Of a stretch of DNA of 64,000 nt, positions 4,017 through 64,000 are shown piece by piece. How positions within the stretch are numbered: the first letter of the stretch is position 1; each line of letters starts with the position of its first letter. The position numbers and the translations under genes were made by a program. Origin of the DNA: Patescibacteria group bacterium (GTDB lineage: Bacteria > Patescibacteriota > Microgenomatia > Levybacterales > UBA12049); contig JBBTVD010000009.1 of NCBI GenBank assembly GCA_038063415.1, positions 15,430 to 79,429 of the forward strand, given 5' to 3'. Below the pieces are notes generated by a model, which saw nothing but the letters and a program-made list of their open reading frames with translations, was not told the DNA's origin and searched no databases.

Positions 4017-4077
4017 GTCATTCCTGCGGAAGCAGGAATCCAGAATATTGTGGATCCCGGATCATGTCCGGGATGAC
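4017..4077. repeat. palindromic MITE/REP-like element, subfamily B (GTCATTCCTGC..GCAGGAATC hairpin plus GGATCCCGG..CCGGGATGAC hairpin)
   Basis: Two adjacent stem-loops with GTCAT...ATGAC termini. It is near-identical in architecture to the copy at 20720-20806 and lies 8 bp from the stop of the yerC-like gene. Confidence 0.7.
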
Positions 4078-4084
4078 AGTTAAT

Positions 4085-4372
4085 TTATATTCCCTTTTGT
4101 TTCTTTAGGACAAGACGATAACCACCTTTGCCTTCAGTTAACCATTTATTAATTCTTGCAATCGTTGTACTGCTCATGCCTGTTTCTTTTTCTATCGTTT
4201 GATAGGGGATCTTTTGATCCAGCATCTGGGCGACTCGCCAACGATTCGCAAATTCTTTAATTTCAGCCTCAGTAAGCAGATCCCGCAAGAACTTTTTACA
4301 TTCGTCTTCTGTCTCAAGAGAAAGAATTGCTTTATATAATTCTTTGCCAATTTTTTCAGAAAAGGTAAGCAT
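4085..4372 (-). CDS. TrpR-like YerC/YecD family small DNA-binding protein
   Basis: 95 aa. The characteristic YerC/YecD block ...LLTEAEIKEFANRWRVAQML..KIPYQTIEKETGMSSTTIARINKWL... is a TrpR-type HTH. Confidence 0.7.
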   Translation of the reverse strand: MLTFSEKIGKELYKAILSLETEDECKKFLRDLLTEAEIKEFANRWRVAQMLDQKIPYQTIEKETGMSSTTIARINKWLTEGKGGYRLVLKKQKGI

Positions 4373-4429
4373 ACTTTACTAAGATAAAGTGATTATATCG
4401 CTTTACTTTGGTAAAGTCAAGGATCTATT

Positions 4430-5320
4430 CTATTTCGTTACAGGTTGTTTGGGAGCAAGTGCAGCTGCAGTAGCTTGTAGTACTGCAATCGTTAATGCTT
4501 TTAGTGCACCAAGAAGTGTTATTTTTGATGTTAGTTCTGTTCGTTCATCTTCAGTCATTGCAGCTCCTTTATTCATGATTCCTTGTATCCTATCATTTAT
4601 TCCCCTCATTTGTCCGTCTACTGCTGTAGAGAATTCTTTAGGACCTTTACTAATTGCTATGGCAAGTGTTCCATTTGGATTTGCCAAAAAATAATCTATT
4701 ACTTTTTGTTTCTCGCTTGCAGAAAGATACGGATTCAATCCTTTGGCTTCTAATTCTTTTTCCACAACTCCCTTGATGTGCCGCTGTTCAGCAGTTAGTT
4801 CTTTTGGAGCAGGCTCCCCAGGTTTAGGATTTTCTCCCGTCTGTAGATATCTTTCAGCTTCTTCAGCAAGCTCTTCAGCTTGCGGAGAGGTCTGTGTCTG
4901 TTCATCGGTAATAGATCCTTCCTTTGTGGATTGAGGTGAAGCGTTATTGTTCTCTGTATCTTTTATTCTTTGTAATGCTACAGTTGTTTCATCTTTGGTT
5001 AGTTCTCCTTTCCTGAAAGCCGCAAAAACATCGTCTTCTGTCTGAAAGTCGGGTTTACTATTCTTATTTTCTGAGGTTACTGGCGAATTATCCGTCTCTT
5101 GTTTTCCTGAAGACGGAGCCTGTTCAGATTCCGGATTTTTCTGATTAAAGTCACCTTTCGCGAGAGATTCGAGTATTTCCCCTGGAGGAGTGCCTAATGT
5201 GGCTGCTTGATCTAATGCATTGCTTACAGCTGCATTTTCATTAGAGGCCTTTTTAGGAGTTTCCTCGTGACTAGGTAATTCAGGTGTGGGTTGCTGTGAA
5301 CCTCCTTCAGGTCCTGACAT
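4430..5320 (-). CDS. hypothetical low-complexity (E/Q/T/P-rich) protein
   Basis: 296-aa ORF with consistent coding frame; the acidic, compositionally biased N-terminal two-thirds and C-terminal approx 100 aa look alpha-helical. No recognisable domain. Confidence 0.4.
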   Translation of the reverse strand: MSGPEGGSQQPTPELPSHEETPKKASNENAAVSNALDQAATLGTPPGEILESLAKGDFNQKNPESEQAPSSGKQETDNSPVTSENKNSKPDFQTEDDVFAAFRKGELTKDETTVALQRIKDTENNNASPQSTKEGSITDEQTQTSPQAEELAEEAERYLQTGENPKPGEPAPKELTAEQRHIKGVVEKELEAKGLNPYLSASEKQKVIDYFLANPNGTLAIAISKGPKEFSTAVDGQMRGINDRIQGIMNKGAAMTEDERTELTSKITLLGALKALTIAVLQATAAALAPKQPVTK

Positions 5321-5421
5321 CGAAATTTCCTCCCTTCACAATGTTTATTTGTTGTTTAATCACCTCAATATTATACTATAATTTATAGCTCTTTGTACGT
5401 GCCTTTTGATATCAAGATATG

Positions 5422-6519: not shown

Positions 6520-6525
6520 ACGAGA

Positions 6526-7266: not shown

Positions 7267-7275
7267 AACTATGTT

Positions 7276-7713: not shown

Positions 7714-7741
7714 AGCGCAATCATACTCAAAAAGCCAACCC

Positions 7742-8284: not shown

Positions 8285-8304
8285 TATCAGAGTTGCGATG
8301 CACT

Positions 8305-9642: not shown

Positions 9643-9677
9643 ATACGATTAGGGATCTTTTTGATACAATAGAAAGT

Positions 9678-10952: not shown

Positions 10953-10961
10953 AAACTAAAA

Positions 10962-11666: not shown

Positions 11667-12877
11667 TTACTTTTAACTCGCTTGGTTCCAATTATGATTA
11701 TCAGTTTGCTCGCATGGCAGTATTTGCCCGAAATGAGCAAAAATATAGTGAGCAATTGCAGGAGTATTTACAAAAGAAATATACAGGAGAAGTAGCTCTT
11801 GTGTATAAAGGTCGGGAAGCATTACGACTAGCCCTTCGTCTTATCAAAGATTCTGGGCAAGCCAGAATGACGAAAGAACCTCTTGTTGGTATCTGTGGTT
11901 ATACGTGCTTTGCTGTTTATGATGCCGTAATCAAAGAAGGCTTTGGCGTTACCTATTTGGATATTGATGCCAAAAGTTTACATTTTTCTCTTGCAACGTT
12001 AAAACAAACAGTAAAGGAAAACCCTCAATTAAAAATTCTCATCATTCAAAATACGCTTGGCTATCCATGTGATATGGTAGGTATCCATAAATTTTGTCAG
12101 GAGAAAGGGATTATTCTGATCGAAGACCTTGCACACGCAATAGGTTCAACGTATGCAAACGGCAGGGAAGCGGGGACAGTAGGTGATTTTGTCGCACTCT
12201 CTTTTAGTCAGGATAAAATGATTGATGGCGTTACTGGTGGAGCGCTTGTCGTCAGAAATCAAAAGTATGCCAAGCTTTTGCAGAAAGAAACTTTTGTCAA
12301 AGTAGGGGAGTGGAAACAACTCATTGATCGACTGTATCCACTCTTTACCGTGGCAATACGAAAGACATATGGAGTTGGTTTGGGGAAGATTCTCCATCAT
12401 CTGCTGAGGAAATCAGGTCTTTTGGCGAGGCCAATGGATGAAAGTACCCAGATACAAACACTTTCACCGTGGTACTGTCTCTTGATTTATAGTGCTTTTT
12501 TGGATCTTGAGAGCAATCGGGAACACAGGAGAAAGATAGCAAGGATTTATCGGGAAGTGATTGATTCTCGGATACAGTTACGACTTGCTCTGTCTCGTAG
12601 TGCCAATTTGCGATTTCCTCTTCTGGTTCCACAGCGAGAAAGTCTCATTGCTTACTTAAAAAACTCTGCTGTTTTTGTCTCTGACATTTGGTATGATGCT
12701 CCTATTGGTCCAAAAAAATTCATGCAATGGACCAATTACCAGCAGGGACTCTGTCCAAATGCCGAAAAAATAGCCGACAAGATGGTCAATCTCCCTACAC
12801 ATAAAAATATCTCACAAGCACAGGCCAAACGGATTGCACAGCTTGTAAATAAATGGCTAAAAGCAAATTATGAATAA
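11663..12877 (+). CDS. DegT/DnrJ/EryC1/StrS-family PLP-dependent sugar aminotransferase
   Basis: 404 aa. Block LIEDLAHAIGSTY..G...G..GDFVALSFSQDKMIDGVTGGALVV matches the family core including the PLP-lysine region. Its start overlaps the upstream gene by 4 nt. Confidence 0.7.
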   Translation: MITFNSLGSNYDYQFARMAVFARNEQKYSEQLQEYLQKKYTGEVALVYKGREALRLALRLIKDSGQARMTKEPLVGICGYTCFAVYDAVIKEGFGVTYLDIDAKSLHFSLATLKQTVKENPQLKILIIQNTLGYPCDMVGIHKFCQEKGIILIEDLAHAIGSTYANGREAGTVGDFVALSFSQDKMIDGVTGGALVVRNQKYAKLLQKETFVKVGEWKQLIDRLYPLFTVAIRKTYGVGLGKILHHLLRKSGLLARPMDESTQIQTLSPWYCLLIYSAFLDLESNREHRRKIARIYREVIDSRIQLRLALSRSANLRFPLLVPQRESLIAYLKNSAVFVSDIWYDAPIGPKKFMQWTNYQQGLCPNAEKIADKMVNLPTHKNISQAQAKRIAQLVNKWLKANYE

Positions 12878-13895: not shown

Positions 13896-13906
13896 AATAG
13901 TGGCGT

Positions 13907-16300: not shown

Positions 16301-16364
16301 GTCATTCTGGCTCGTCCAGAATCAGTAAAAAGATCCTGGATGCACTTCGCTTACCAGGATGACG
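16301..16364. repeat. palindromic MITE/REP-like element, subfamily A (GTCATTCTGG-loop-CCAGAATC hairpin plus GATCCTGG..CCAGGATGAC hairpin)
   Basis: It starts 4 nt after the pepA stop. Termini are GTCATTCTGG ... CCAGGATGAC. Confidence 0.75.
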
Positions 16365-20719: not shown

Positions 20720-20806
20720 GTCATTCCTGCGAAAGCAGGAATCTAGAAATGCCATACTAAATTCATCTCAGGGATATCTGGATTCCCGATCGGGTCGGGA
20801 ATGACA
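20720..20806. repeat. palindromic MITE/REP-like element, subfamily B
   Basis: GTCATTCCTGCGAAAGCAGGAATC hairpin plus GGATTCCCGATCGGGTCGGGAATGACA hairpin. It ends 8 bp from the stop of the TPR gene at 20814. Confidence 0.7.
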
Positions 20807-23872: not shown

Positions 23873-25429
23873 TTAATACAATATCGCTAAGTCATACGGA
23901 GGTTCTCCGTTGGGTTCAGGGGTTGTGTAGATGCCTTCTGGTGACTCAAGTGCGTCCAAAAGCTGAATGTATCTATAAAAAACAGCATTGGTCCAGCCAA
24001 ATCCTTGTTGGTCTTCATATTTTGCATTACTGCCGGAGTGGCCTGTCTCTCCATTTAGTTTCTCAAAGAAGGTTTGATGTTTACGAAAAACGTTGGCATG
24101 GGCTTTAACAGCATTTTGCATAATTCCTTTAGCTTCTTCCATATAGCCGTATTTAAGTAATCCTATGACCGTAAGGTATTCGAGTGGTGACCAGATATTC
24201 GGATAGTCCCATTGTTTTGGCATGATTATTTCTTCAATAGCCGGATGATATCGTTGTTGGATCTTTGACAGATCAATATCATGGGCAAGTGACTCTTTGG
24301 CTCCAATGGTTAGTCCATATGGCGTTACAAACTTATGGAGCTTTTCTACCATTTGTTTTGCTTGATATTTGGTTGCGAGCCCTGCCCACATTGGGACATA
24401 CGAAGCCAGGGAAAAATAATGCCCAATTTTCTTCGCGATATAATTGTAGTCATAAAAGAATGCTTCATTTGGATCCCACATCAGCTTATGCATTTCTTTT
24501 TGACGTTCTCTGGCTTTTTCCTGCCAGTACTCCCCTTCTCTGTCATCTCCAAGTATTTTGGCAGCCAGGGCAAAATCTTTTTCGTATTTATACAAATAAC
24601 TATTGAGATCAATTGGGAAGAACTGATCACAACGGTTGTAAAACCGTGAAGTCATATCCCAACCTGATTCAAGCTCTGAAGAGTGAGCATAGCCAATATC
24701 CCGATCTCCGTAACGAGCCAAAAGAGAATCTTTGACACTGTGGTTATACGCACGAATTTTATCAATCCACACGATTTCATATTCTTTTTTTGCTACTTCC
24801 ATTGCTTTTTTAAGCCAGTTCTTCTTGGTTAAGGTATATAGTTGTCGTCCAATCCCTTTTCGTACATAGTCATTGCTGGAATTCAGTGGTGAAAGATAGG
24901 TGTCAAGGATCATTGAAGAAAAAAATGGAGGCTGAGACCGTCCCATAGATGCAGGGGCGTTAAAGTTAGGAATAATTTGGTACATATGAAAAAGATACAT
25001 AAAGTTCTCTATCATTTCTCGCATGAGCCATTCACGTCGAGTACCCATCAGTCCACGAAACATGAAATAACTATCCCAATAAAAGATATAGGTAAATTTA
25101 TTATCATTCGGGACAAAATAATAATGTGGAAGCTTAATAAAGTTTGGGTTGACATTTACGGTAGTCGTAATTTCTCGTGAGAACTGTAATCTATTGGGAA
25201 TGGTCGCTACTCGATAGCGTAGCTTCATTTTGGAAGGTTTATAAATGATTTTGTTCCAGTAGCTGTCAATGTATGCAAGGCAGTCTGCGTACTCTTTACT
25301 CCACATAAAGTTAGTATAAGATATCTTGGATAAAGTATAAAGCATGAATATTGAAAAAGAACTGAAAGCTGTTGCATCTATGGCATTGTATGTCGTAGAA
25401 TAATGCATGGCTGCCCTATGAAAGATCAA
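23873..25429 (-). CDS. trehalase (glycoside hydrolase family 37)
   Basis: Matches both GH37 signature regions: ...FYWDSYFMFRGL (cf. R-F-x-E-x-Y-x-W-D-x-Y) and PKQWDYPNIWSP (cf. Q-W-D-x-P-x-[GAV]-W-[PAS]-P). The N-terminal start is uncertain and overlaps the divergent xer start region. Confidence 0.65.
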   Translation of the reverse strand: MIFHRAAMHYSTTYNAIDATAFSSFSIFMLYTLSKISYTNFMWSKEYADCLAYIDSYWNKIIYKPSKMKLRYRVATIPNRLQFSREITTTVNVNPNFIKLPHYYFVPNDNKFTYIFYWDSYFMFRGLMGTRREWLMREMIENFMYLFHMYQIIPNFNAPASMGRSQPPFFSSMILDTYLSPLNSSNDYVRKGIGRQLYTLTKKNWLKKAMEVAKKEYEIVWIDKIRAYNHSVKDSLLARYGDRDIGYAHSSELESGWDMTSRFYNRCDQFFPIDLNSYLYKYEKDFALAAKILGDDREGEYWQEKARERQKEMHKLMWDPNEAFFYDYNYIAKKIGHYFSLASYVPMWAGLATKYQAKQMVEKLHKFVTPYGLTIGAKESLAHDIDLSKIQQRYHPAIEEIIMPKQWDYPNIWSPLEYLTVIGLLKYGYMEEAKGIMQNAVKAHANVFRKHQTFFEKLNGETGHSGSNAKYEDQQGFGWTNAVFYRYIQLLDALESPEGIYTTPEPNGEPPYDLAILY

Positions 25430-26356
25430 AAGCTTACTGGACTTATCATTGATTTTCTCGAGTACTTAGAAGTCGAAAAAAATTGTAGTAAGTTAACCCT
25501 TCGGGATTATAAGCATTATCTTGATGTCTTTGTGGAGTGGCACTCCTCTTCCCTACCTGGTAAATCAATTGAAAATCTTACCTTGGTTGATGTTCGCAAG
25601 TTCCGTGTTTACCTGGCTGATTTGACTGATAAAAAAGGCCAAACCCGTAAGAAAGTTACCCAAAATTACTATGTCATTGCGCTTCGGTCGTTTCTTCGGT
25701 TTCTCCTCAAAAACGACTATAGGACTTTGGAGCCTTCCAAGATCGATCTGCCTAAGACAGAAAGTCGTAGCCTCAAATTCCTTGAGCGTGAGCAAGTAGA
25801 TCGCTTGGTAACCATGCCTGATACCTCAAAGGAAGAAGGCATTCGTGATCGGGCGATTCTGGAGCTGCTTTTTTCAACAGGGCTTCGTGTCTCTGAATTG
25901 GTAAGCCTGAACCATCAGCAACTTAATCTAGAAAGACGTGAATTTGGGATTATTGGCAAAGGCAGACGTTCCAGAATTGTCTTTATCTCAGATCGAGCTG
26001 CTGAATGGATTCAAAGATATCTTGATGCTCGGATCGATGTCTTTAAGCCGCTTTTTATCCGATACTCAGGCCAAGTGATGGAAGAAGATGAAGGTGAGAA
26101 GATGCGTCTGACAGTACGAAGCATTGAGCGAATTGTAAAAAAATATACGGAGCTTGCTCGGCTTCCTGTGGATGCTACGGTGCATACGCTACGACATAGC
26201 TTCGCGACAGATCTACTTACCAATGGTGCTGATTTACGATCAGTACAGGAAATGCTCGGACACAAGAATATCGCGACAACGCAGATTTATACGCATATCA
26301 CGAACAAACAGCTTAGAGAAGTACACAAGGCTTTTCATAGTGGAAATAAGGAATAA
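25403..26356 (+). CDS. tyrosine site-specific recombinase (XerC/XerD-like)
   Basis: 317 aa. N-terminal SAM-like core-binding domain, and a C-terminal catalytic domain with R..(LRVSEL), HTLRHSFAT, and LGH...TTQIYTH containing the catalytic Tyr. Confidence 0.8.
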   Translation: MHGCPMKDQKLTGLIIDFLEYLEVEKNCSKLTLRDYKHYLDVFVEWHSSSLPGKSIENLTLVDVRKFRVYLADLTDKKGQTRKKVTQNYYVIALRSFLRFLLKNDYRTLEPSKIDLPKTESRSLKFLEREQVDRLVTMPDTSKEEGIRDRAILELLFSTGLRVSELVSLNHQQLNLERREFGIIGKGRRSRIVFISDRAAEWIQRYLDARIDVFKPLFIRYSGQVMEEDEGEKMRLTVRSIERIVKKYTELARLPVDATVHTLRHSFATDLLTNGADLRSVQEMLGHKNIATTQIYTHITNKQLREVHKAFHSGNKE

Positions 26357-28220: not shown

Positions 28221-28249
28221 GGATTCCTGGTTTACCGCCAGGAATGACA
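28221..28249. repeat. partial palindromic element (single hairpin GGATTCCTGG-TTTA-CCGCCAGGAATGACA), subfamily B half-copy
   Basis: One stem-loop carrying the ...GGAATGACA terminus, between the stops of convergent genes. Confidence 0.5.
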
Positions 28250-32093: not shown

Positions 32094-32978
32094 TTATCGA
32101 TAGTTATTTATAGTATCTCGTAATTGTGTTGCTTCTTCCCTGGCTTTTTCTGCAAAATCTTGTCCGCTTGAGGCAAAAAGAATACTTCGTGATGCATTAA
32201 TCATCATTCCACGCTTCTTGGTATTTAATCCTGCTTTGACTGTAGCTTCTGTATCTCCACCTTGTGAGCCAATTCCTGGAACAAGTAGTACCATGTCTCC
32301 AACGATCTTGCGAATTTCAGTAAGCTGTGCAGGATACGTCGCCCCCATAAAGATCATCGTATTTGGATAGCCTCCCTGTTGTTGCATGAGTTCTTGTGCG
32401 ACGAGTTCATAGAGTGGCTTTATTTTGTCATGCTGAATTTGTTTCAGCATCTCTTCTCTTGTTTGCTTGGGATCCTGAAATGAATTCAGGATGACATACT
32501 GTTCCTGAAATTCTTTGGCTTCTGGGTTTGAAGAGTGACAACCGACAATAATTCCTTTATCTTTATAGGCAAAATAAGCGCTTAGTGATCCAATTCCCAT
32601 ATACGGCATGACTGTCAAAGCATCAGCTTGAAGATAGTCAAAGATATACTGGGCATAGCCTTTGTTGGTATTACCTATGTCTCCACGTTTGGCATCAATG
32701 ATAACAGGAATCTCTGGATACTTCTCCTTGATATAATCGCAGGTCATTTTGAGCTCTCGCACTCCTCTATCCCCGCGTGATTCGTAAAAGGCGGGATTTG
32801 GTTTATATACACAGGCCAAATCATGCGTGGCGTCAATAATTGCTTTATTAAATTCAAACTGTGGGTATCCTTTTTCTTTAAGAAAATCTGGGAGTTTGTC
32901 AAAATCGGGATCAAGGCCGACACACAGGAGAGAATTATTTTTATCAACAGCGGCGTTTAGTTTGTCATGAAAGGACAT
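32094..32978 (-). CDS. pyrF: orotidine-5-prime-phosphate decarboxylase (type 2, long form)
   Basis: LLCVGLDP and IIDAKRGDIGNT are the type-2 OMPDC signature blocks. The start is taken at MSFHDK (32978), directly after the upstream HAD gene stop; the track ORF extends further into that gene. Confidence 0.8.
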   Translation of the reverse strand: MSFHDKLNAAVDKNNSLLCVGLDPDFDKLPDFLKEKGYPQFEFNKAIIDATHDLACVYKPNPAFYESRGDRGVRELKMTCDYIKEKYPEIPVIIDAKRGDIGNTNKGYAQYIFDYLQADALTVMPYMGIGSLSAYFAYKDKGIIVGCHSSNPEAKEFQEQYVILNSFQDPKQTREEMLKQIQHDKIKPLYELVAQELMQQQGGYPNTMIFMGATYPAQLTEIRKIVGDMVLLVPGIGSQGGDTEATVKAGLNTKKRGMMINASRSILFASSGQDFAEKAREEATQLRDTINNYR

Positions 32979-35245: not shown

Positions 35246-35324
35246 GTCATGCTGGCTCATCCAGCATCTCTTATTGATTCTGGATGCACGCTCCGTCAGT
35301 TGTCGGATCGCTTACCAGAATGAC
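35246..35324. repeat. palindromic MITE/REP-like element (GTCATGCTGG..CCAGCATC hairpin plus GATTCTGG..CCAGAATGAC hairpin), subfamily A variant
   Basis: It lies between the aspartase stop (35340) and the EamA-like gene start. Confidence 0.7.
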
Positions 35325-36677: not shown

Positions 36678-36760
36678 GTCATTCTGGCTTGTCCACTCCG
36701 ATTTAATCGGAGTCCAGAATCAAATGTGATCCTGGATGCGTTTCACTTACCAGGATGACG
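36678..36760. repeat. palindromic MITE/REP-like element, subfamily A
   Basis: GTCATTCTGGC..GTCCAGAATC plus GATCCTGGATGCG..CCAGGATGACG, upstream of the aspA start. Confidence 0.75.
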
Positions 36761-36944: not shown

Positions 36945-37020
36945 CGTCATTGCGAGGAGGGTTATGCGACGAAGCAATCTTATGAGATCGCCACAACTAC
37001 TTCGTAGTCTCGCGATGACG
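36945..37020. repeat. palindromic element variant with termini CGTCATTGCGAG ... CTCGCGATGACG, overlapping the 3-prime end and stop codon of the DHOD-like gene
   Basis: Imperfect 12-bp terminal inverted repeats share CGTCAT/ATGACG ends with the main family. The gene's last codons (..KRHRETTK) and TAG stop lie inside the element. Confidence 0.55.
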
Positions 37021-41391: not shown

Positions 41392-42207
41392 TTACTCAAC
41401 AGTTTCTTTGAGTACATTGGTCAGACAATGGGCACCACCGCCTGATTTAATAAACTCTCCAACGTCCACTGGTACTGTTTTGTACCCTAATGTCTGTAAT
41501 TTTTTCTCAAGGGTGTGATTTCCTTTTTGTAAGACAACATGATGATCAGTTATGACACTGTTCCCTCCAAATCCCAGCACCTCTTCTTGGCTAAATTCCA
41601 ATAGATTTGGGATTTTCTTTTGTAAGATCTTTTGTGTTTCCAGGGTATAGGCATGTGGGTAATAAAAAACGGTCTGATTATTGAGGGGAAGCATCGCAAC
41701 GTCCAAATGATAATACCTTGGATCAGTAATCTGGAGTGGGATTACTTCCCGGTCAAAAATCTTTTGTAAGGTCGGAATTGTCTCGTCACTACTTCGATAC
41801 CCTACACCGAGGAAAATAAGGTCATTCCAAAAATACATTTCCCCATTGCCTTCAAAAAAGACGTTCTCTGGTAAGTAGTGGATCTTGTAGTCATTGTCCG
41901 AGAACCATGCTTCATAGTATTTGCTCTCCCCTCTCCTCTCTCGGTGACGGAAGCGACTAAGCAGCACTTTCTTATCCTGCACAATTCCTTGATCTGCCGC
42001 AAATACCATGTCAGGCACGTCTTCTCCTTGTTCAATAGTATTCACTTCAATACCAAGCTTTTTATAGACTTGCACCAGATGCTTCCATTGTTTCATAGCT
42101 ACTTCCGTATCTGCTGTCCCTGGTTTCATCCAGGGATTGATGACGTAATCTACTGAAAAATAAGTAGGCCGACAGACGAGCACTTTTTTTATAAGTTTAT
42201 TTTTCAT
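41392..42207 (-). CDS. second DDAH-like amidinotransferase (tandem paralog)
   Basis: 272 aa from MKNKLIKKVLVCRP. It is collinear with the 40531-41346 product (VLVCRPTYFSVDYVINPWM vs VLMCRPLYFSSFDYIINPWM; SGGGAHCLT vs SGGGINCLT). The track ORF's longer N-terminal extension runs into argG and is rejected. Confidence 0.6.
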   Translation of the reverse strand: MKNKLIKKVLVCRPTYFSVDYVINPWMKPGTADTEVAMKQWKHLVQVYKKLGIEVNTIEQGEDVPDMVFAADQGIVQDKKVLLSRFRHRERRGESKYYEAWFSDNDYKIHYLPENVFFEGNGEMYFWNDLIFLGVGYRSSDETIPTLQKIFDREVIPLQITDPRYYHLDVAMLPLNNQTVFYYPHAYTLETQKILQKKIPNLLEFSQEEVLGFGGNSVITDHHVVLQKGNHTLEKKLQTLGYKTVPVDVGEFIKSGGGAHCLTNVLKETVE

Positions 42208-42235
42208 AATGAAAGAATATAATTCTGTGTAGTAA

Positions 42236-43876
42236 CTACACTGTTGCTTTTTGCAGTTTCTCGATGAAGGCTGTCGCAAGGTGAACACTCGTAAAAATTG
42301 GCACATTGTGTTCAACTGCTTTCTGTCTGATAATTTTCCCGTCTGTTTGGGTGACTTCCTTTTCCATAGGGATGTTAATAATAAGATCGAATCTATTGGA
42401 GTCGAGTAGATCTCCAAGGTTTGGCTTAAGTTGCGGCTGAGAAATCTTATGAACCAGAATCGTTTCAAGACCATTGGTCTTAAGGAATTTATGATTCTTG
42501 TAGGTAGCATAGATTTTGTAACCCATGTCATGCAATTTCTTAATTGAAGGAAGCAATTTAACTTTGTTTTCTCTCTTTCCGATTGAAATAAGAGCTGTCT
42601 TCTCTGACCGTTGGGCAAGTTTCATCGACAAGGTATAGTGTTCTATGAAGCCTGCTGATGCATTTTGATTCAGTCCCTCTGATACCATAAAGGTTGCCAG
42701 TTTTTCTTCAAAGATAGTGTTTGGTGTCTCAAGCGCCATAACCTGGGCCATGCCTTTGTAGAGTTGTACTGTTACTTTACCGGTTACTTTTTTATTGACG
42801 TTATCAATAAAGGCGTTTAAATCATGCATTAATGGCTCATACCAGAGTGCTCCATAGCAGAGGTATGCCCATTTTTGATCGACTGTTGCTTTAAATTCAT
42901 TTTCTGTTCTGGTACAGACATAGTGTTCGAGTTTTTCATGAGCAGTAATGATGATCTCGGCAGCCGGAGCTTCAAAAACATCACGAATTTTCATACCAAT
43001 AATTCTATCTTCGATGTGCACGTTCGTCCCTACTCCATGTTTTGCACCAATTTTGTTGAGTTCCATAATAAGATCCGCAAGTTTCATTTGCTTCCCATTA
43101 AGGCTAACGGGTACTCCTTTAACAAATTCAAGATGTACCATTTCTGCTTTATCAGGTGCGTCTTGTGGTAGTTTATTTACGACAAGAATTTTCTCTAGCG
43201 GTGGGATAAGTGCTGGATTTTCGATTTCTCCTCCTTCTCCTGATGTTCCCCACATGTTGTCATCATATGAGTAAGGCTTTTCACTCGTGTGACTGACTGG
43301 GATACCATTCTCTTTGGCATAAGCTAATTCTTCTGTCCTCCCCATGCTCCACTCTCGGACTGGAGCAATAATCTTGATGTCTGGATTAAGGGCAAGGGCT
43401 GAACCTTCAATACGGATCTGGTCATTGCCTCGTCCTGTGCAGCCGTGTGCAATAGCATCTGCTCCTTCTTGTGCAGCGATTTTGACTGCCCATTTGGCAA
43501 GGAGTGGTCGTCCTATTGCTGTTGCGAGACGATAGCGGTGTTGGTAGTTTGCGTTTGCCTTAATGCCTTTTGCGATATATTCTTCAGCAAATTCATCTTT
43601 GGCATCGATAACATACGTTTTGACTGCACCAAGTTTGATAGCTTTTGCTTTGATTTCATCAAGATCATCAACAATTTGTCCAATATCGATTGTGAGGGCA
43701 ATAACTTCTGCTTTATATTCGTCTTGGATCCATTTGAGCATAACTGAGGTATCCAAACCTCCGGAGTATAAGAGGACAACTTTTTTAACTTCACCTTTTT
43801 TGCCTTCGTAACTTGCAACCTTTGTATATGTTGATTTTTTATCCATACAGGTGTCTGTATAAGAAAAGTGAGTCAT
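42236..43876 (-). CDS. argG: argininosuccinate synthase fused to a C-terminal MGS-like (CarB allosteric-domain-like) domain
   Basis: The N-terminal approx 400 aa is ArgG (VVLLYSGGLDTSV, full-length conservation). The C-terminal approx 130 aa (ALISIGKRENK...GYKIYATYKNHKFL...FDLIINIP...DGKIIRQKAVEHNVPIFTS...) matches the methylglyoxal-synthase-like domain pattern of the CarB C-terminus. The probable start is MDKKS at 43846. Confidence 0.75.
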   Translation of the reverse strand: MTHFSYTDTCMDKKSTYTKVASYEGKKGEVKKVVLLYSGGLDTSVMLKWIQDEYKAEVIALTIDIGQIVDDLDEIKAKAIKLGAVKTYVIDAKDEFAEEYIAKGIKANANYQHRYRLATAIGRPLLAKWAVKIAAQEGADAIAHGCTGRGNDQIRIEGSALALNPDIKIIAPVREWSMGRTEELAYAKENGIPVSHTSEKPYSYDDNMWGTSGEGGEIENPALIPPLEKILVVNKLPQDAPDKAEMVHLEFVKGVPVSLNGKQMKLADLIMELNKIGAKHGVGTNVHIEDRIIGMKIRDVFEAPAAEIIITAHEKLEHYVCTRTENEFKATVDQKWAYLCYGALWYEPLMHDLNAFIDNVNKKVTGKVTVQLYKGMAQVMALETPNTIFEEKLATFMVSEGLNQNASAGFIEHYTLSMKLAQRSEKTALISIGKRENKVKLLPSIKKLHDMGYKIYATYKNHKFLKTNGLETILVHKISQPQLKPNLGDLLDSNRFDLIINIPMEKEVTQTDGKIIRQKAVEHNVPIFTSVHLATAFIEKLQKATV

Positions 43877-49744: not shown

Positions 49745-50677
49745 TTATTTTAGAGTTTGCTTCTCCGCTGCAGTAATCAGGTTGTCCATAAGCATTGCTA
49801 CATTAACCGGTCCAGTACCCCCTGGAGTGGGTGTATAAAAGCCTGCAAGGTCTGCAATCTCTTCTTCCTCATAATCTCCAAATAAGTTCCCTTGATCGTT
49901 CTTATCGACTCCTACGCCGATCAGGATTACCCCTTTCCTGATGTTGTCAGCTGTGATGACGCGATGTTTGCCAACGGCCGCGATGATAACATCTGCTTGT
50001 TTGGTTAGGGTGTATGGATCTTTTGTTTTACTATCAACGATCTCTGGGGTTATACCAAGTTGTTTGAGGTAAGAAATGATAGGTCCTCCTCCTGATGGTC
50101 CCTTGCCGATGATGACGATTTTTTGCGTTTTTAGCCACATTAGAAATCCATCGGGGGCCTGCCTCTCGCTTCCCCGTCCGACGGCTTCACTCACGTCATT
50201 CGTTCCAGGCGCTCGACGGGGATCCCCTGCTCGCGTCACTCCTTGCTTTTGTGTATAAACTTCCTCCAATATCTTAACCACGGCCGGGGCAAGTGGGAGT
50301 ACAAAGGGAGATTCCGGATGGAAGCCGTCTACGTCTTTTTGTGGAGCCGTTGCAAGCTCAAGCTGTTTTTCATCAATATGCTTAGGTAGTGGCCGTTGGA
50401 TGAGTATCCCGTGGACGAATGGATCTTGATTAAGCAGAAGCACTTTTTGTCGTAACTCTTCTGTCAAGACCGACTCCTCAAATCTTAGGATAGTAACTTT
50501 TGCACCAATCAGATCAGCCTTTTTTTGCTTGAGCGTGACATAGGCTACTGAAGCTGGATTATTACCAATCAGAAAAACAACTAAATGCGGTGTTATCTTT
50601 TTCCGTTGCAGCTTAAGGACTCTTTTTGTAAGGTCAGTATAGAGCTGGTCAGCGATTGCGCGGCCGTCGAGTTTCAT
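49745..50677 (-). CDS. folD: bifunctional methylenetetrahydrofolate dehydrogenase/cyclohydrolase FolD, carrying an approx 35-codon GC-rich in-frame insertion
   Basis: FolD blocks LVVFLIGNNPASVAYV, VDGFHP, IIGKGP.GGGP, and PGGTGPVNVAML. The start is taken at MKLDGRAIA (50677). The insertion (about 50123-50239) sits between the YTQKQG and KIVIIGKG blocks. Confidence 0.8.
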   Translation of the reverse strand: MKLDGRAIADQLYTDLTKRVLKLQRKKITPHLVVFLIGNNPASVAYVTLKQKKADLIGAKVTILRFEESVLTEELRQKVLLLNQDPFVHGILIQRPLPKHIDEKQLELATAPQKDVDGFHPESPFVLPLAPAVVKILEEVYTQKQGVTRAGDPRRAPGTNDVSEAVGRGSERQAPDGFLMWLKTQKIVIIGKGPSGGGPIISYLKQLGITPEIVDSKTKDPYTLTKQADVIIAAVGKHRVITADNIRKGVILIGVGVDKNDQGNLFGDYEEEEIADLAGFYTPTPGGTGPVNVAMLMDNLITAAEKQTLK

Positions 50678-53312: not shown

Positions 53313-53352
53313 AGATCCTGGAGTCCTTCCTTCAGTCGTCCCCAGGATGACG
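53313..53352. repeat. partial palindromic element (hairpin GATCCTGGAGTCC..CCCCAGGATGACG)
   Basis: A half-copy immediately upstream of a full copy; it shares the CCAGGATGACG terminus. Confidence 0.5.
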
Positions 53353-53369: not shown

Positions 53370-53439
53370 GTCATTCTGGCAAATGAACAAAGTTCATGCG
53401 TCCAGAATCAGCAATCGTCTTCGGCTTACCAGAATGACG
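53370..53439. repeat. palindromic MITE/REP-like element, subfamily A
   Basis: GTCATTCTGGC..GTCCAGAATC plus ..CTTACCAGAATGACG. It ends 6 bp from the ppa stop. Confidence 0.75.
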
Positions 53440-55978: not shown

Positions 55979-56033
55979 GTGTAGAGAATATTATTACAGA
56001 ACGAGAGAAAAATTTCAAGCCCAGGTTCATGGC

Positions 56034-59000: not shown

Positions 59001-59282
59001 AACCTGAGCAACAAAGCGTGAAGGAAGTTGAGATGTTTTCATTTCTGGTATTTCAGAAATAAAGCCATTTCTTTCAGCAGGGGTAATTGTTTGTTTTGGA
59101 TTACTGAGACGAGGATCTCGAGAGCTCATCAAAAATCGTGCTGTCTCAGGAGAGATACCTTGCGATTTTTCTTTCTCTGGTATACGAACGTTTTTTGCCC
59201 ATTCAGCAGGTCTACGGATACTTTCAAGGACAGCTACCATACTACTGCAGTATACCATGCCAGAACGAGAGAAGAATTTCAA
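56034..59282 (-). CDS. giant hypothetical protein (1082 aa) with tandemly duplicated approx 190-aa C-terminal modules
   Basis: Long uninterrupted ORF. The C-terminal third contains two homologous modules, each with two sub-repeats (GEItDTPeGsKQF...SFG.A.F.lTf.NEG..L.V.D, ending TATINRqLP...EL.SLQI.DG.LELKA.). No recognisable catalytic motif. Confidence 0.6.
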   Translation of the reverse strand: MKFFSRSGMVYCSSMVAVLESIRRPAEWAKNVRIPEKEKSQGISPETARFLMSSRDPRLSNPKQTITPAERNGFISEIPEMKTSQLPSRFVAQVAWEDRQAYDATKEGTDEEKYTNWRRGFKTWFDGADEKTQQAVKATLTASGVPVENTLELNQINQFYDQYLEKEALYEDFAQNFLAEFDQNGVVNRDQALSRLKRLTPFFQRTFGHLDIVRVIQADIDARSILSQSPDQRRRLAPEIVTEVENPITDQASISGFDKLAKKLQEPSLRQREHEQVDQPEPTPPETRQTSTPELTSPESDPLGSDESSHQRMMEASAVLNRRLQPHEATAIRAGEDILSSDVIAREIAERMVDYQTGEIKKDQVDMLPLYKQLTAQTESMAREPDFPQNQPVFVISNVARAMIQRYAEASNDRNRELAFSLQGIRVRRDNNNDIFIAGFAAPASDFKEPRIGDVMIRAEIREEKARELARKLNLAGFLQSYWPGDEGGAPTALIHTHHLSLGEIYQGEPSAGDLRLSEQQFIKRERDPRIFAPPIGIATATENDLIINILHTTRGDDATIHHGGHSKVIIQTPEGLQTHSSPADVTEETQPSPAQNRGEPLLERVNRDAADETSSEREARRPQEHTIEVAIRPDMVSSLAKKFVRLPYGYSLKELTENIRDGQSGKPELVVEGALGAPFGETSFALAVVERDQAEQQPIIQATLPPDVLCNLVKQYPLPIGAIQELTGEITDTPEGSKQFLLKGRVATSFGGAFFDLTFENEGKGLKVVDRIIDYTGIGKVKRVQKIAESKIEKYVENFDKIVTATINRQLPVGELDSLQIRDGVLELKARRTGQPELPTADPNEDSPERSGSDIQATIAQDILFESITQKARHKIETMPYWQKTRFPIRTLADVSGGIQETPDGKKQFIVETAMDTTFGKIPLNLAFKNETDEENTPDLQVGITPDTIIELAKPEVQKKLPMGKLRELTGEIVDTPTGQKQFVVQGVVNSSFGQATFTITLANEGNSLRVEDHTINFRGLAKFAGLFRGKIEEGLVGFSPKMTATINRLLPPTNELESLQIGDGALELKAKKREPLPSAT

Positions 59283-59354
59283 GCCTTGCTCTGTTTCTCT
59301 AGAAGCAGCCTCCTGTCTTATGGCTGAGTTTGTGTTGCAGTTGGTATGGATTTT

Positions 59355-59882: not shown

Positions 59883-59939
59883 AAGAATACTTTATATTTT
59901 CATTTTAGCACGATGACAAAGAAGAAAAAAAGAGCTTAT

Positions 59940-61274
59940 TTACTCATAAAACTTTTTATGTTTTACTTTCTCTGGTAGAAAAGATTGTTCCTCTTTGGGC
60001 CCTACATACTTATCTGACCAGGTATATTCTTTAGCATAGCCCAGGTTCTTCATTAACTTCGTTGGAGCATTGCGGAGGTGCAACGGTATGGGTTCATTTG
60101 GGAATTCATAGACTGCTTGCTTGGCTCTGCCGAGTGCATTGGTTACTGCTCGAGACTTCTTGGCACTTGCGAGATAGACAACCACATGAGCGAGAGTGAG
60201 TTGTGCCTCAGGCATACCGATTTTGGTTACAGCTTCAAATGCCTGGTTTGCTTGAATAAGAGCTCCCCTGTCTGCCATGCCGATATCCTCTGAAGCAAAG
60301 ATTATCATACGTCTGGCGATAAACTTGGGATCTTCGCCATTTTCAAGCATGCGGGCGAGATAGTAGAGTGCAGCATCGACAGCACTTCCCCGCATCGATT
60401 TGATAAATGCACTGGTGATGTTGTAATGCTCATCTGCTTTTTTATCATAGAGTCCTGCTGATTTGGTCTGAAAGATTTCTTGAATGATTTCCACAGAAAT
60501 AACGTCATTGCGAGACTTCGAAGAAGTCGTGGCAATCTTTTTTGTATGAGATTGCTTCTCTACGCTCGCAATGACGAGAGCAGTTGTTGCAGCCATCTCA
60601 AGACCGTTGAGCATAATTCGAGCGTCACCCCCAGAGAGTCGGATAAGTAATTCTTTTGCATCAGGGGTGATGGTTTTTTTGTACTTCCCTATCCCCCGCT
60701 CTTTGTCGACAAGTGCCCGATCAATAATCTTGCCAAGGTTCGTAGGTGTAAGACTCTGGAGGACAAAAACCCGACAGCGAGAAAGAAGCGCACTAATCAC
60801 TTCAAAGGAAGGATTTTCAGTAGTCGCTCCAATGAGGATAAGGGTACCATTCTCTACATATGGCAAGAGTGTATCTTGTTGCGCTTTATTCCAGCGATGA
60901 ATTTCATCAAGGAAGAGAATAGTCATTCTGACTTGTCCAGCATCTTTTCTTGATTCTGGAGTCCTCACTTTGTTCGTCCCCAGAATGACGTTTGCTTTTG
61001 TTGCTCTTTTGTTCTCCTCCGCCTCGCGAATAATCTTCATCAGATCTGCTTTGCCTGTCTCAACAGCTGAGAGATGATGAAAATCGGCTCGTGCTGCCTG
61101 TGCAATCAGATTTGCGAGTGTTGTTTTGCCACTTCCTGGTGGTCCCCAAAAGATCATTGATGAGATGTTTCCCGTCTCAAGCATCTTTTGCAGCAGTTTA
61201 TTTTTGCCGACGAGATGCTCCTGTCCGATGTATTCTTCGAGTGTCTGTGGCCGCATTCGGTACGCGAGGTTCAT
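59940..61274 (-). CDS. rarA: replication-associated recombination protein A (RarA/MgsA AAA+ ATPase), carrying an in-frame palindromic-element insertion
   Basis: Walker A GPPGSGKTT, Walker B ILFLDEIHRW, sensor-1 GATTENP, arginine finger SRCRVF, and the C-terminal MgsA domain. About 20 extra residues (..NVILGTNKVRTPESRKDAGQV..) lie between the IREA helix and Walker B relative to E. coli RarA. Confidence 0.85.
   Translation of the reverse strand: MNLAYRMRPQTLEEYIGQEHLVGKNKLLQKMLETGNISSMIFWGPPGSGKTTLANLIAQAARADFHHLSAVETGKADLMKIIREAEENKRATKANVILGTNKVRTPESRKDAGQVRMTILFLDEIHRWNKAQQDTLLPYVENGTLILIGATTENPSFEVISALLSRCRVFVLQSLTPTNLGKIIDRALVDKERGIGKYKKTITPDAKELLIRLSGGDARIMLNGLEMAATTALVIASVEKQSHTKKIATTSSKSRNDVISVEIIQEIFQTKSAGLYDKKADEHYNITSAFIKSMRGSAVDAALYYLARMLENGEDPKFIARRMIIFASEDIGMADRGALIQANQAFEAVTKIGMPEAQLTLAHVVVYLASAKKSRAVTNALGRAKQAVYEFPNEPIPLHLRNAPTKLMKNLGYAKEYTWSDKYVGPKEEQSFLPEKVKHKKFYE
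60923..60990. repeat. palindromic MITE/REP-like element (subfamily A) located inside the rarA coding sequence, in-frame
   Basis: GTCATTCTGACTTGTCCAGCATC..GATTCTGGAGTCC..CCCCAGAATGACG. It contains a 43-bp segment identical to the holB copy. Confidence 0.75.
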
Positions 61275-61304
61275 AGCGAGGTTATTGTAGCACAGATAAA
61301 TTTT

Positions 61305-62327: not shown

Positions 62328-62331
62328 ATTT

Positions 62332-62406
62332 TGGAGATGCGGGTAGGAATTGAACCTACGTCTTCTGTCTTGCGGACAGACGCCTGAGCCACTCGGCTAC
62401 CACATC
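62332..62406 (-). tRNA. tRNA-Cys (anticodon GCA) with encoded 3-prime CCA
   Basis: The minus-strand read gives acceptor GATGTGG/CCGCATC (one G-U), anticodon stem TCTGT/ACAGA with loop CCGCAAG (anticodon GCA, A37), T-arm GTAGG-TTCAATT-CCTAC, and discriminator T followed by CCA. Confidence 0.75.
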
Positions 62407-62452
62407 GGAGAAATTATAGCATTTTGTTCACCACTAAAGCTATAATGGAGTT

Positions 62453-63322
62453 ATGTTTGGATTTAAACATTTCCGTAAAGGTCTTCTCTTTGCTTTGGTG
62501 GCAGTTTTTTTTGGTTCTATCGTGACGGTAACATTACGATATCTTTTTACCACTGGAGAAAATCCACTGAATATCAGTGCCTGGATACTTCTTCTGGCAG
62601 CCGTCCCGTGGCTTTTCCTTTTTCATAAGCATAACAAAGCTTTTACCAAGCTATCCCTCAAAAATATCTTACTGTTACTTTTTATCGGTATTGCTGGTTC
62701 TGTTGGGGTTAATTACATGCAATCGTTAGCATTAGCCAATACCTCTGCAATCAATTTTGCTTTTCTGTATCGTACGATTATCGTCTTTACCATCATTTTT
62801 GCTTGGCTCTTTTTAAATGAGAAACTCACCTGGCGCAAATGTTTGTTGGTAGTCATTATTCTTGTCGGATCGTACCTGATTACTACGGACGGAAGTACGT
62901 TCTCCTTATCTGCTGGAGATATCTACACCCTCATTATGGCAGCGGCAGCGGCTTTTATCTCAAATATTCTTATTAAGCACACCATGTCCAAAATGCATCC
63001 TGATTTGAGTGGTTCTGTTACTTCTTTGGTTGCTTGTCTTTCTCTTGTGATACTTGCTTATACAAGCAATGTTTTTAGTATCCCACAACATTTCGTTTTC
63101 GTTTGTTTGGCAAGCGTTTGTTATTTTGCCCTTATTATGCTGCGAAATCGTGCCTATGTTCTCTCTACAGCTTCTTTTGTGACGATGATTTTTGGACTAA
63201 CGCCATTGTTTGTTACAATTTTATCGGTCATTTTTTTGCATGAAACGATTGAGTTTATCGAAATTATAGGAGGAATCCTTATCCTTACATCTGCCTTTTT
63301 TGCTGAGAAATATAGAGTCTGA
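62453..63322 (+). CDS. EamA/DMT-family transporter (10 TM, duplicated EamA domains)
   Basis: 289 aa. Two 5-TM halves, each resembling the EamA domain. Confidence 0.65.
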   Translation: MFGFKHFRKGLLFALVAVFFGSIVTVTLRYLFTTGENPLNISAWILLLAAVPWLFLFHKHNKAFTKLSLKNILLLLFIGIAGSVGVNYMQSLALANTSAINFAFLYRTIIVFTIIFAWLFLNEKLTWRKCLLVVIILVGSYLITTDGSTFSLSAGDIYTLIMAAAAAFISNILIKHTMSKMHPDLSGSVTSLVACLSLVILAYTSNVFSIPQHFVFVCLASVCYFALIMLRNRAYVLSTASFVTMIFGLTPLFVTILSVIFLHETIEFIEIIGGILILTSAFFAEKYRV

Positions 63323-63445
63323 GCCTTACGCTTTGTTCTTCTCTATTGCTCGAGTGGTGACAAATAACAGCAGTTGGGTAATAGCAAAGAAAAGTGGCGC
63401 AAAACGAAGTGCTGTTTCGTTTGAAAACATCCATGCTCCAGAGTA

Positions 63446-64000
63446 TTATACTTGACTCGTGGCAAGGGAAAGTAACGTTTGTTCAATAGCAAATCGTGCA
63501 TTAACGTTGGTTGTCTTTATGGTTGTATGTAGCTCTTGGAAAGAACGCAAATATTCCGTCATTCTGGCAAGCGAAGCGCGTCCAGAATCCGTTATCGTTT
63601 GAGATTCTGGAGTCCTCACTTTGTTCGTCCCCAGAATGACGTTTGTTACCATCTCTTCTCGCATAATTCGGATCATACTGGCGATCCACGTGAGTGCTTT
63701 TTCTTTATCTTTTGCAAGGAGCTCTGCCTTTTTGAGCCGTTCCCCGATCGGCATGGTTGGTAGGCGTTCAAAAAACTCTTGAAAATCTTGTCGTTTTTTA
63801 TCAGTGAGCTTTTTTATCACCTCTGGAATAACGATCAGCTGACAGCGAGAAAGAATAGTCGGCAAAAAAGCTTCTTTTGAATCTGCGCTCAGTATCAGAT
63901 ACGTATGTTCTGGTGGCTCCTCAAGTACTTTTAGGAGGGCATTTTGTGCTTCACGGGTCAACAGTTGTGCATCATCAAGGACAATTGCTTTTTGTTTGCC
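63446..64000 (-). CDS. holB: DNA polymerase III delta-prime subunit (HolB-like clamp-loader subunit), N-terminus beyond the window end; carries an in-frame palindromic-element insertion
   Basis: AQNALLKVLEEPPEHTYLIL...LPTILSRCQ is the clamp-loader delta-prime/tau sensor-2 block. The reading frame is open to the window edge, and the peptide TNVILGTNKVRTPESQTITDSGRASLARMTE is encoded by the repeat element. Confidence 0.6.
   Translation of the reverse strand, partial: GKQKAIVLDDAQLLTREAQNALLKVLEEPPEHTYLILSADSKEAFLPTILSRCQLIVIPEVIKKLTDKKRQDFQEFFERLPTMPIGERLKKAELLAKDKEKALTWIASMIRIMREEMVTNVILGTNKVRTPESQTITDSGRASLARMTEYLRSFQELHTTIKTTNVNARFAIEQTLLSLATSQV
63558..63641. repeat. palindromic MITE/REP-like element (subfamily A) inside the holB coding sequence, in-frame
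   Basis: GTCATTCTGGCAAGCGAAGCGCGTCCAGAATC plus GATTCTGGAGTCC..CCCCAGAATGACG. The 43-bp block 63603-63645 is identical to 60952-60994. Confidence 0.75.

Follow-up and report, generated by a model that had tools for sequence, protein, structure and literature searches.

Short hairpin-forming repeats are scattered over a 64-kb stretch of DNA from an uncultured groundwater Patescibacterium (contig JBBTVD010000009.1, positions 15,430 to 79,429; ~40% G+C), which we refer to as the window, and they raise the question of what kind of element they are and which enzyme might act on them. A first-pass annotation had described them as related palindromes resembling repetitive extragenic palindromic (REP) sequences, Rickettsia palindromic elements (RPEs) or miniature inverted-repeat transposable elements (MITEs). 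We find that the repeats are CGTC-tagged REP hairpins, of the same class as the Ssn-related motifs (SRMs) that include the Neisseria NTS. Moreover, comparison with other genomes indicates that the paired copies in the window are gene-less forms of a module in which such hairpins flank ssn, a gene for a small GIY-YIG nuclease.

Enrichment and architecture of the repeats

All 11 coordinates given in the first-pass annotation hold an element, and four further copies (Table 1: the solo unit at 11849, the doublets at 32427 and 60504, and a partial 5' half at 47252) bring the tally to 11 doublets, three solo units and one partial unit, with a total length of 894 nt at 48% G+C. The motif GTCATYCTGG occurs 13 times in the window as against 0.19 expected. 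Perfect units, defined as GTCAT, a 7-bp stem, a loop of 3-45 nt and then a C, number 19, whereas 200 dinucleotide-preserving shuffles give 0.14 on average and never more than 2. When the tag is ignored, the search returns 27 hairpins with AT-initiated 7-bp stems, 19 of which carry GTC...C on exactly one strand. The families also emerge independently from a generic repeat finder; two of the copies that it reports, each 43 nt long and located at 60952 and 63603, are identical. In addition, the element regions are reproduced at 99.9-100% identity in independent ENA and Logan assemblies of Hainich groundwater, and the window sequence is not an assembly artefact. The enrichment and the repeat finder confirm the structure that had been claimed, namely related palindromes with inverted GTCAT...ATGAC termini and one or two stem-loops; together with the independent assemblies, the enrichment also speaks against the concern, raised in the same place, that the copies might be unrelated or the window artificially assembled from repeats. 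Rfam models identify only two tRNAs in the window, with no family matching the repeats at gathering score.

The basic unit has the form [C/T]GTC-AT-N5...loop...N5'-AT-C, that is, a tag, a stem-loop-stem and a trailing C. The stems of all units are AT-initiated (GTC-AT...AT-C) and perfect over at least 7 bp. Among the 19 perfect units, the base preceding GTC is C in 12 and T in 7; the C after the stem is invariant by construction of the search, and the next two bases are CA in four. A literal search of the window for CGTCAT-N20-50-ATGACG, the terminal form originally described, finds nothing, since the elements span 61-86 nt and their tag starts with either C or T. The inverted GTCAT...ATGAC ends of that description stand, but its fixed leading C does not. 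Loops range from 3 to ~30 nt, and several contain a nested hairpin (e.g. 36678 and 53370). Stems vary among subfamilies, each being paired with its own complement, and include the TTCTGG, TCCTGG, TGCTGG, TTCCTGC, TCCCGG, TTCCCGA, TTGCGAG, TCGCGAG and TGCTGAA/TCCTGAA types; subfamilies therefore exist as had been proposed, but there are more than the two originally recognized.

Most units are paired, with one long-loop unit and one short-loop partner separated by a spacer of 6-37 nt. All 11 doublets have their tags facing outward (GTCAT..ATC, short spacer, GAT..ATGAC). Folding of each copy had been suggested as a check, and every doublet, folded as single-stranded DNA, beats its shuffles (z = -2.9 to -7.2), whether it forms two hairpins or a single long one. 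Direct repeats of 2-10 nt, as would be expected from target-site duplication, flank none of the 11 doublets. A classical MITE derived from a DDE transposon was consequently rejected as a candidate, the inverted termini being present but a target-site duplication being absent at 11 of 11 doublets.

Membership in the CGTC-tagged class

CGTC-tagged REPs were defined by Di Nocera, De Gregorio and Rocco (2013, BMC Genomics 14:522; PMC3733652) as hairpins with a CGTC or TGTC tag, a stem of ~8-9 bp opening with two A-T pairs, and a C-initiated tail (consensus CCA). According to these authors, the repeats occur mainly as inverted dimers, often heterodimers, are found less than 20 bp past ORF (open reading frame) ends, lie nearer to the upstream stop than to the downstream start in unidirectional gene pairs, and include intragenic in-frame copies of ~20-30 residues, for which genes of replication and repair are frequent hosts. 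The class was stated to include Neisseria dRS3 and Rickettsia conorii RPE-4 and RPE-6; it was concluded to have no dedicated enzyme, no transposase for it being known, and no REP-associated tyrosine transposase (RAYT) flanked by CGTC units was found (PMC3733652). The window units share the unpaired [C/T]GTC tag, the two A-T pairs at the start of the stem and the C after it, as well as the prevalence of inverted dimers (11 doublets versus three solo units), the proximity to ORF 3' ends and the presence of in-frame copies (twice in rarA, and in holB).

The same class is linked to an enzyme by the work of Chenal et al. (2025, Nat Commun 16:2388; PMC11893778), in which the Neisseria NTS (CGTCATTCCCGCGMAVGCGGGAATCYRG) is bound and cut by SsnA, a 94-residue GIY-YIG nuclease that acts on single-stranded DNA only, and on one strand only, and that does not bind RNA. 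The three bases preceding the palindrome are important for cleavage and the C that follows it for binding, and the nick is placed a few nucleotides 5' of the tag. Across bacteria, ssn genes are flanked by such motifs, which were named SRMs, the layout in Neisseria being NTS-ssnA-NTS (PMC11893778). Hairpins in the window are likewise preceded by GTC and followed by C, which Ssn requires for cutting and binding, and the 20720 unit departs from the NTS only at the first base of the tag and in one compensatory stem pair.

The nuclease-carrying module and its putative gene-less form

An exact-pattern scan for the TTCTGG-type unit (GTCATTCTGGC-N3-30-GTCCAGAATC) in one genome per GTDB species gave at least 120 loci. 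Among the matches listed are the Patescibacteria Roizman-, Curtiss-, Gottesman-, Levy-, Shapiro- and Daviesbacteria, Kazan, Saccharibacteria and Gracilibacteria, and metagenome-assembled genomes (MAGs) labelled Gammaproteobacteria, Nitrospirae, Acidobacteriota, Ignavibacteria, Calditrichaeota and LCP-89. The unit has no match in 2.9 million viral contigs (IMG/VR). Unbiased clustering of the ORFs in the 120 loci yields a small GIY-YIG protein as the most recurrent family (10 loci), and a hidden Markov model (HMM) detects 12 GIY-YIG (ssn-like) ORFs in the same set. These proteins are ~91-111 (roughly 95) residues long with PF01541 as their sole Pfam domain. We regard the flanked genes as putative members of the ssn family, in that they show the arrangement SRM> ssn <SRM, in which a few nucleotides separate the end of the 5' unit from the start codon and the stop is overlapped by the inverted 3' unit. 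Pairs of units in the 120 loci and the window are convergent in 95 cases, divergent in 24 and in tandem in 32. The spacers of the convergent pairs are bimodal: 84 of 95 are shorter than 40 nt, and six measure 276-312 nt, all six of the latter containing ssn.

A second scan, of metagenomes, used the GGGGAC-type long-loop unit of the window (53314, 60952 and 63603) and returned 19 contigs. In 11 of these, the start of an ssn ORF is at most a few tens of nucleotides away from the long-loop unit, mostly no more than ~10 nt; a twelfth contig (L139) ends just past an identical ssn start, and in L148 the ssn ORF is on the opposite side of the unit. Five of the 19 contigs instead show the long-loop unit and, 7-16 nt further on, GATTCTGGRCAAGCCAGAATGAC or a variant as the inverted short-loop unit; L146 has the long-loop unit followed only by a truncated remnant of the right unit. 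The short-loop right end of the doublet in L152 is a 23-mer identical to the solo unit in the window DegT-family gene. Moreover, doublets 16301, 35246 and 36678 correspond to a second type of module, seen in L103, in which GGTAAG..GCATCC is the left and GGC..GTCC the right unit. The sequence that flanks ssn on its 3' side in Gottesmanbacteria locus L113 has a near-identical counterpart in the left unit of doublet 53370. Judged from these comparisons, the long-loop unit is the left end, and the short-loop unit the right end, of an SRM-ssn-SRM module. Since the doublet pair matches the two ends of a module that is intact in related genomes, the window doublets are its gene-less, MITE-like derivatives. 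The two states, with a spacer of ~290 nt containing ssn and of less than 40 nt without it, amount to a relation of autonomous to MITE-like elements that is only hinted at in PMC11893778, and the association with ssn would answer the question, raised by Di Nocera et al., of which enzyme goes with CGTC REPs.

Several observations concern the distribution of these modules. A hairpin with 21 specified bases is found exactly in very distant phyla (loci L004-L123), with the proviso that some MAG labels or bins could be wrong, and this cross-phylum occurrence points to horizontal spread of the module. Locus L084 (candidate division Kazan; 596-1541 and 4656-5246) contains two ssn-like genes and more than a dozen unit matches in one 8-kb stretch, with several subfamilies and tandem arrays of the short-loop unit, and forms a local cluster like those described in Neisseria and Wolbachia. 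An SRM-flanked ssn gene is found at one place, between an HD-domain gene and serS, in several groundwater assemblies that are independent of each other (L127-L131), and at least some copies of the module are therefore stably inherited rather than in flux. Contigs with homologues of a Curtissbacteria Ssn that were checked came from Rifle and other groundwater metagenomes, and none came from the Hainich sample.

Position relative to genes and in-frame inserts

Seven of the nine intergenic elements lie 3-21 nt from a stop codon, and in unidirectional gene pairs the elements are usually closer to the upstream stop than to the downstream start. The original description of the repeats as usually abutting stop codons thus applies to the intergenic elements but not to ORF-internal copies, and the added statement that they often separate convergent genes fits only two of the nine. 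Because genomes of the Candidate Phyla Radiation (CPR) are so compact, six of the 15 copies (~40%) are in, or overlap, coding sequence. Four doublets (in pyrF, twice in rarA, and in holB) and one solo unit (in a DegT-family gene) are in frame within ORFs, and the last codons, C-terminus and stop codon of pyrD are supplied by the doublet at 36946. Two of these copies, at 60923 and 63558, had been listed in the first-pass annotation without recognition of their ORF-internal, in-frame position.

The reading frames are open on both sides of these elements, which are therefore read through as extra residues. In alignments with solved structures, Escherichia coli MgsA (3PVS), a homologue of RarA, is gapped exactly at the element positions, as are PDB homologues of PyrF; the DegT-family protein has ~6 extra residues at the site of the solo unit, and the structure alignment of HolB ends where the element starts. 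The predicted insert peptides contain 8-28 residues, with NVILGTNKVRTPES being encoded in both RarA and HolB and another insert reading VIASVEKQSHTK. Annotators of CPR genomes should expect such peptide inserts, in addition to spurious small ORFs and contig breaks caused by the repeats. A separate case is FolD (50134-50305, residues ~144-200), which has ~28 extra residues between its two domains relative to solved structures; this segment is encoded by an unusually G+C-rich stretch containing GGGGATCCCC...GAATGACG and may be a decayed CGTC doublet.

Turnover of inserts in RarA homologues

Presence or absence at orthologous sites, a comparison that had been proposed alongside the first description of the repeats, was examined with the 120 best RarA homologues, which differ in occupancy and subfamily at two loops. 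RarA without inserts is ~398-400 residues long, and many Patescibacteria sequences are ~10-60 residues longer, the extra residues being located at the same two loops as in the window protein. The inserts are translations of differing subfamilies (NTS-type, TTGCGAG-type and TTCTGG-type doublets) that give peptides such as VIPANAGIQ...SGMT, VIARSEERTTKQS..., VIASEAKQS... and VILGTNKVRTPES... At the DNA level, hot spot 1 of rarA is occupied by an NTS-type doublet in L132, in which the left unit equals the Neisseria NTS consensus at 27 of 28 positions, and by a TTGCGAG-type doublet in L133; both hot spots are empty in L134. The finding of different subfamilies at the same two loops across lineages is a natural experiment on targeted versus tolerated insertion.

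Other repeats also seem to enter these proteins. Five RarA homologues (P0042, P0044, P0070, P0090 and P0096) have a different short insert near the C-terminus (~window residues 419-426), PARNASSIADAGG or GPARNASHSDAG, which has the look of an in-frame translation of another repeat family; in that case, proteins in these genomes would be decorated by repeats other than CGTC units as well. A perfect 20-nt palindrome not of the CGTC type, CCTGCCTGCCGGCAGGCAGG, is present at 3866-3885, upstream of an M15 peptidase gene, and is followed by a hairpin (3890-3911) with a terminator-like score on both strands. The LPAGRQA insert in RarA homologue P0062 looks like a translation of this palindrome.

Proposed mechanism

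We propose that the CGTC REP/SRM hairpins of the window are gene-less derivatives of ssn modules that are acted on by an Ssn nuclease encoded elsewhere in the genome, and we put the probability of this explanation at roughly three in four. The observations that it has to account for are the structure of the repeats and their conserved asymmetric tags, the existence of the module in two states, the repeated linkage to GIY-YIG genes, the differences in occupancy of the RarA sites and the in-frame state of several copies. On this proposal, each unit would fold into a hairpin when the DNA becomes single-stranded during replication, repair or uptake, and an Ssn-family nuclease, encoded outside the window, would recognize and bind the hairpin and nick a few nucleotides 5' of the tag. 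The interaction of Ssn with the hairpin would, directly or through repair, cause spread, turnover and loss of the repeats without target-site duplication, and selection would retain copies where they are tolerated, just past stops or in frame in surface loops of proteins.

A number of points weigh against this proposal. Motif and HMM searches find no GIY-YIG gene in the window or in ~4.7 kb of extra flank (L124, L125), so that the cognate enzyme of this genome is a presumed one. The flanked GIY-YIG proteins have no NCBIfam match, and their nearest PDB match is a remote UPF0213 GIY-YIG protein. The published SRM string, HGTCWYN(0-2)YYVSBRHN(0-5)WNVSBRGN(0-2)RNCYNB, fits just one window unit, the right unit of doublet 4017 (4050-4078, minus strand), as against 0.14 matches in shuffles. 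The reason is that the stems and loops of the window differ from those that the string accommodates, namely loops of up to ~5 nt and G/C-rich stems, and it is therefore unsuited to detecting these subfamilies. Even the closest RarA homologues share no more than ~73% identity with the window protein, so that the insertions are neither datable nor demonstrably recent. GIY-YIG nucleases, moreover, are hydrolytic and form no covalent intermediate, and we know of no Ssn for which transposition activity has been demonstrated. The tags-out arrangement of the doublets also places the predicted nicks on opposite strands, unlike the IS200/IS605 mechanism. Transposition by Ssn is raised merely as an idea in PMC11893778.

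A stronger version of the same proposal, in which SRM-ssn-SRM modules and doublets constitute an active, phylum-crossing mobile family that is driven by a GIY-YIG nuclease acting on single-stranded DNA, with in-frame insertion that is targeted to preferred loops of essential replication and repair proteins (RarA, HolB) and not just sieved by selection, is one that we advance tentatively and regard as doubtful. If true, it would imply a transposition or homing chemistry distinct from that of DDE, HUH, serine and tyrosine enzymes, and, for the tiny Patescibacteria genomes, a major source from which in-frame peptide insertions arise recurrently.

Alternative explanations

The repeats might instead be kept by the host as a domesticated system, in which cutting by Ssn restricts or shapes recombination of incoming single-stranded DNA as it does in Neisseria. 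Such a function has been demonstrated for NTS and SsnA in N. meningitidis (PMC11893778), and the tagged hairpin is conserved across phyla; no feature of the window, however, relates to transformation, and the in-frame copies in essential genes, the decayed or partial copies (47252 and the degenerate units of 53370 and 60922) and the occurrence of the module in two states resemble proliferation and subsequent decay rather than placement to serve a function. We consider domestication unlikely, although it is compatible with the proposed action of Ssn on module derivatives and does not exclude it.

According to the classical REP hypothesis, which the first-pass annotation followed, the hairpins are mainly RNA elements that terminate transcription or stabilize the 3' end of the upstream message. 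The location of most intergenic elements just past a stop, and nearer to the upstream stop in unidirectional pairs as also reported in PMC3733652, is what this hypothesis predicts, and one unit (28245-28223, minus strand) does fit a hairpin with a T-rich tail. A terminator-like scan, on the other hand, catches very few of the elements, mostly on the wrong strand or within the element, the region-wide counts of terminator-like structures exceed those in shuffles by at most ~2-3 standard deviations, and the T tract is missing at most copies. Termination would also be harmful at the six copies in or overlapping coding sequence, and an RNA role leaves both the strand-specific GTC...C tags and the link to a gene for a DNA nuclease unexplained, SsnA being unable to bind RNA (PMC11893778). 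A role at transcript ends may thus hold for the single unit at 28245-28223 and agrees with the stop-proximal placement, but is improbable for the repeats as a whole. As a candidate identity, an intrinsic terminator, in which a G+C-rich hairpin precedes a T tract on the upstream gene's strand, fits only that same unit.

It is very improbable that the repeats are REPINs mobilized, as in Pseudomonas and E. coli, by a RAYT, which is a Y1 transposase of the IS200/IS605 type. Inverted hairpin pairs able to form one long hairpin, the lack of target-site duplication and a REPIN-like distribution are features in common, but the tag is CGTC or TGTC rather than GTAG, Pfam finds no transposase in the window, and the GIY-YIG family is the sole recurrent candidate in the 120 repeat-bearing loci, which yield no transposase-like ORF cluster. 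The absence of RAYTs flanked by CGTC units (PMC3733652) argues in the same direction. A RAYT, IS110 or other recombinase was likewise rejected as a partner, no ORF family besides GIY-YIG being recurrent near the repeats of the 120 loci; the XerC/D-like gene of the window (25403-26356) adjoins no element. Finally, chance palindromes or assembly artefacts are refuted by 19 perfect units where 0.14 are expected, identical sequences in independent assemblies, and the same units in hundreds of other genomes.

Catalogue of copies and other features of the window

The copies and their surroundings are collected in Table 1.

Table 1. Repeat elements of the window with their positions, strands and genomic context (z, folding score relative to shuffles).
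Element	Position	Strand	Context and remarks
Doublet, NTS-like	4017..4077	.	GTCATTCCTGCGGAAGCAGGAATC, 12-nt spacer, GATCCCGGATCATGTCCGGGATGAC; z = -5.45; 7 nt from stop of Trp-repressor-like ORF (4085-4372, minus strand)
Solo unit GTCATTCTGGCTTGCCCAGAATC	11849..11871	-	In frame in DegT-family aminotransferase ORF, encodes DSGQARMT
Doublet, GGC..GTCC short-loop unit and GGTAAG..GCATCC unit	16301..16363	.	z = -3.08; in three independent assemblies; 3 nt past pepA stop, 25 nt ahead of efp start
Doublet, NTS-like, left unit TGTCATTCCTGCGAAAGCAGGAATCTAG	20720..20805	.	z = -4.48; repeat family D10; between convergent genes, 8 nt from TPR gene stop
Solo unit GTCATTCCTGGCGGTAAACCAGGAATC	28222..28248	-	Between convergent genes; sole copy resembling a gene-end terminator
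Doublet, 69 nt (23 codons)	32427..32495	.	In frame in pyrF, encodes VILNSFQDPKQTREEMLKQIQHD; z = -6.19
Doublet	35246..35324	.	15 nt past Lyase_1 gene stop; z = -5.25
Doublet, left-unit loop with nested hairpin	36678..36759	.	Intergenic, pyrD/Lyase_1; z = -4.70; repeat family D9
Doublet, TTGCGAG/TCGCGAG	36946..37019	.	Overlaps pyrD 3' end; z = -3.21
Partial unit, 5' half only, GTCATTCTGGCAAATGTACAA	47252..47272	+	3' end of HlyD-family ORF; identical to 53370 unit at 20/21 positions (repeat family D19)
Solo long-loop unit, GGGGAC-type variant	53314..53351	-	Between pyrophosphatase gene and gyrA; repeat family D2
Doublet, right unit degenerate	53370..53438	.	7 nt past pyrophosphatase stop; z = -3.52
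Doublet, 72 nt, TTGCGAG	60504..60575	.	In frame in rarA hot spot 2, encodes VIASVEKQSHTKKIATTSSKSRND; z = -7.23
Doublet, short-loop and GGGGAC-type long-loop unit	60922..60989	.	In frame in rarA hot spot 1, encodes NVILGTNKVRTPESRKDAGQVRMT; z = -2.90
Doublet	63558..63640	.	In frame in holB (DNA polymerase III delta'), encodes NVILGTNKVRTPESQTITDSGRASLARMT; z = -4.83; ORF runs past window end, Pfam match to delta' subunit, complete gene in L124

Two further regions of the window deserve mention. A 37-nt direct repeat, 84% identical between its copies, is found just upstream of gyrB (55985-56021) and at the start of an ORF of 1082 residues (59249-59285) that lacks a Pfam match. Since a sigma-70-like promoter match overlaps the copy next to gyrB, the repeat may be a duplicated promoter or leader. 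The region 41392-43876 contains two DDAH-like paralogues side by side and an ORF for argininosuccinate synthase (546 residues) with a C-terminal MGS-like domain. As listed, the latter overlaps the upstream DDAH-like ORF by ~380 nt, and one of the two start codons is therefore probably mis-set.

Comparison with known systems

Given that these repeats were catalogued in 2013 and tied to Ssn in 2025, they are not a new kind of element. Differences from the published CGTC REPs are nevertheless evident. Loops in the four published families are 4-5 nt long, exceptional lengths being noted in some species (PMC3733652), whereas those in the window are 3-30 nt long and often contain a nested hairpin; in addition, TTCTGG-like stems are absent from the text of PMC3733652, and Patescibacteria (CPR) were outside its survey. 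With regard to NTS and SRM, a single-domain GIY-YIG gene is flanked on both sides in related genomes, as in the published modules, but the window itself has no ssn gene. The close match to the NTS is also confined to one subfamily (4017 and 20720), the TTCTGG, TTGCGAG and TGCTGAA subfamilies having in common with it only the tag, the AT pairs and the C. The survey of Ssn in PMC11893778 covered RefSeq representative genomes, and its main text deals neither with CPR nor with in-frame insertions, the derivation of gene-less doublets from the module or the earlier classification as CGTC REPs. The class is abundant in Patescibacteria, whose genomes are covered by neither study.

The REPIN/RAYT system, which was reportedly described by Nunvar et al. 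in 2010 and by Bertels and Rainey in 2011, offers a parallel in organization. Both systems have inverted non-autonomous doublets and a single-copy gene with the same REPs at its flanks, lack target-site duplication, and involve recognition of hairpins in single-stranded DNA. The REPIN/RAYT system, however, combines a GTAG tag with a Y1 (HUH) transposase, as opposed to CGTC and a GIY-YIG nuclease here, and because a GIY-YIG gene takes the place of the Y1 transposase the chemistry must differ.

In-frame palindromes are also said to have been found in Rickettsia, in genes presumed to be functional, by Ogata et al. in 2000 and 2002 and by Claverie and Ogata in 2003. The window resembles that system in having in-frame palindromes that leave the host genes intact and add short peptides to loops. 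RPE-1 differs in being ~100-150 bp long and unrelated in sequence, and the host there is an obligate intracellular alphaproteobacterium rather than a free or episymbiotic groundwater Patescibacterium. The comparison with RPEs in the first-pass annotation has nevertheless held up, and proves more apt than was then realized because RPE-4 and RPE-6 are reported to belong to the CGTC class (PMC3733652), and because several copies in the window are in frame. Relative to all of these systems, what is new here is the CPR host, the long structured loops, the relation between the module and its gene-less form, and the hot spots of in-frame insertion in RarA.

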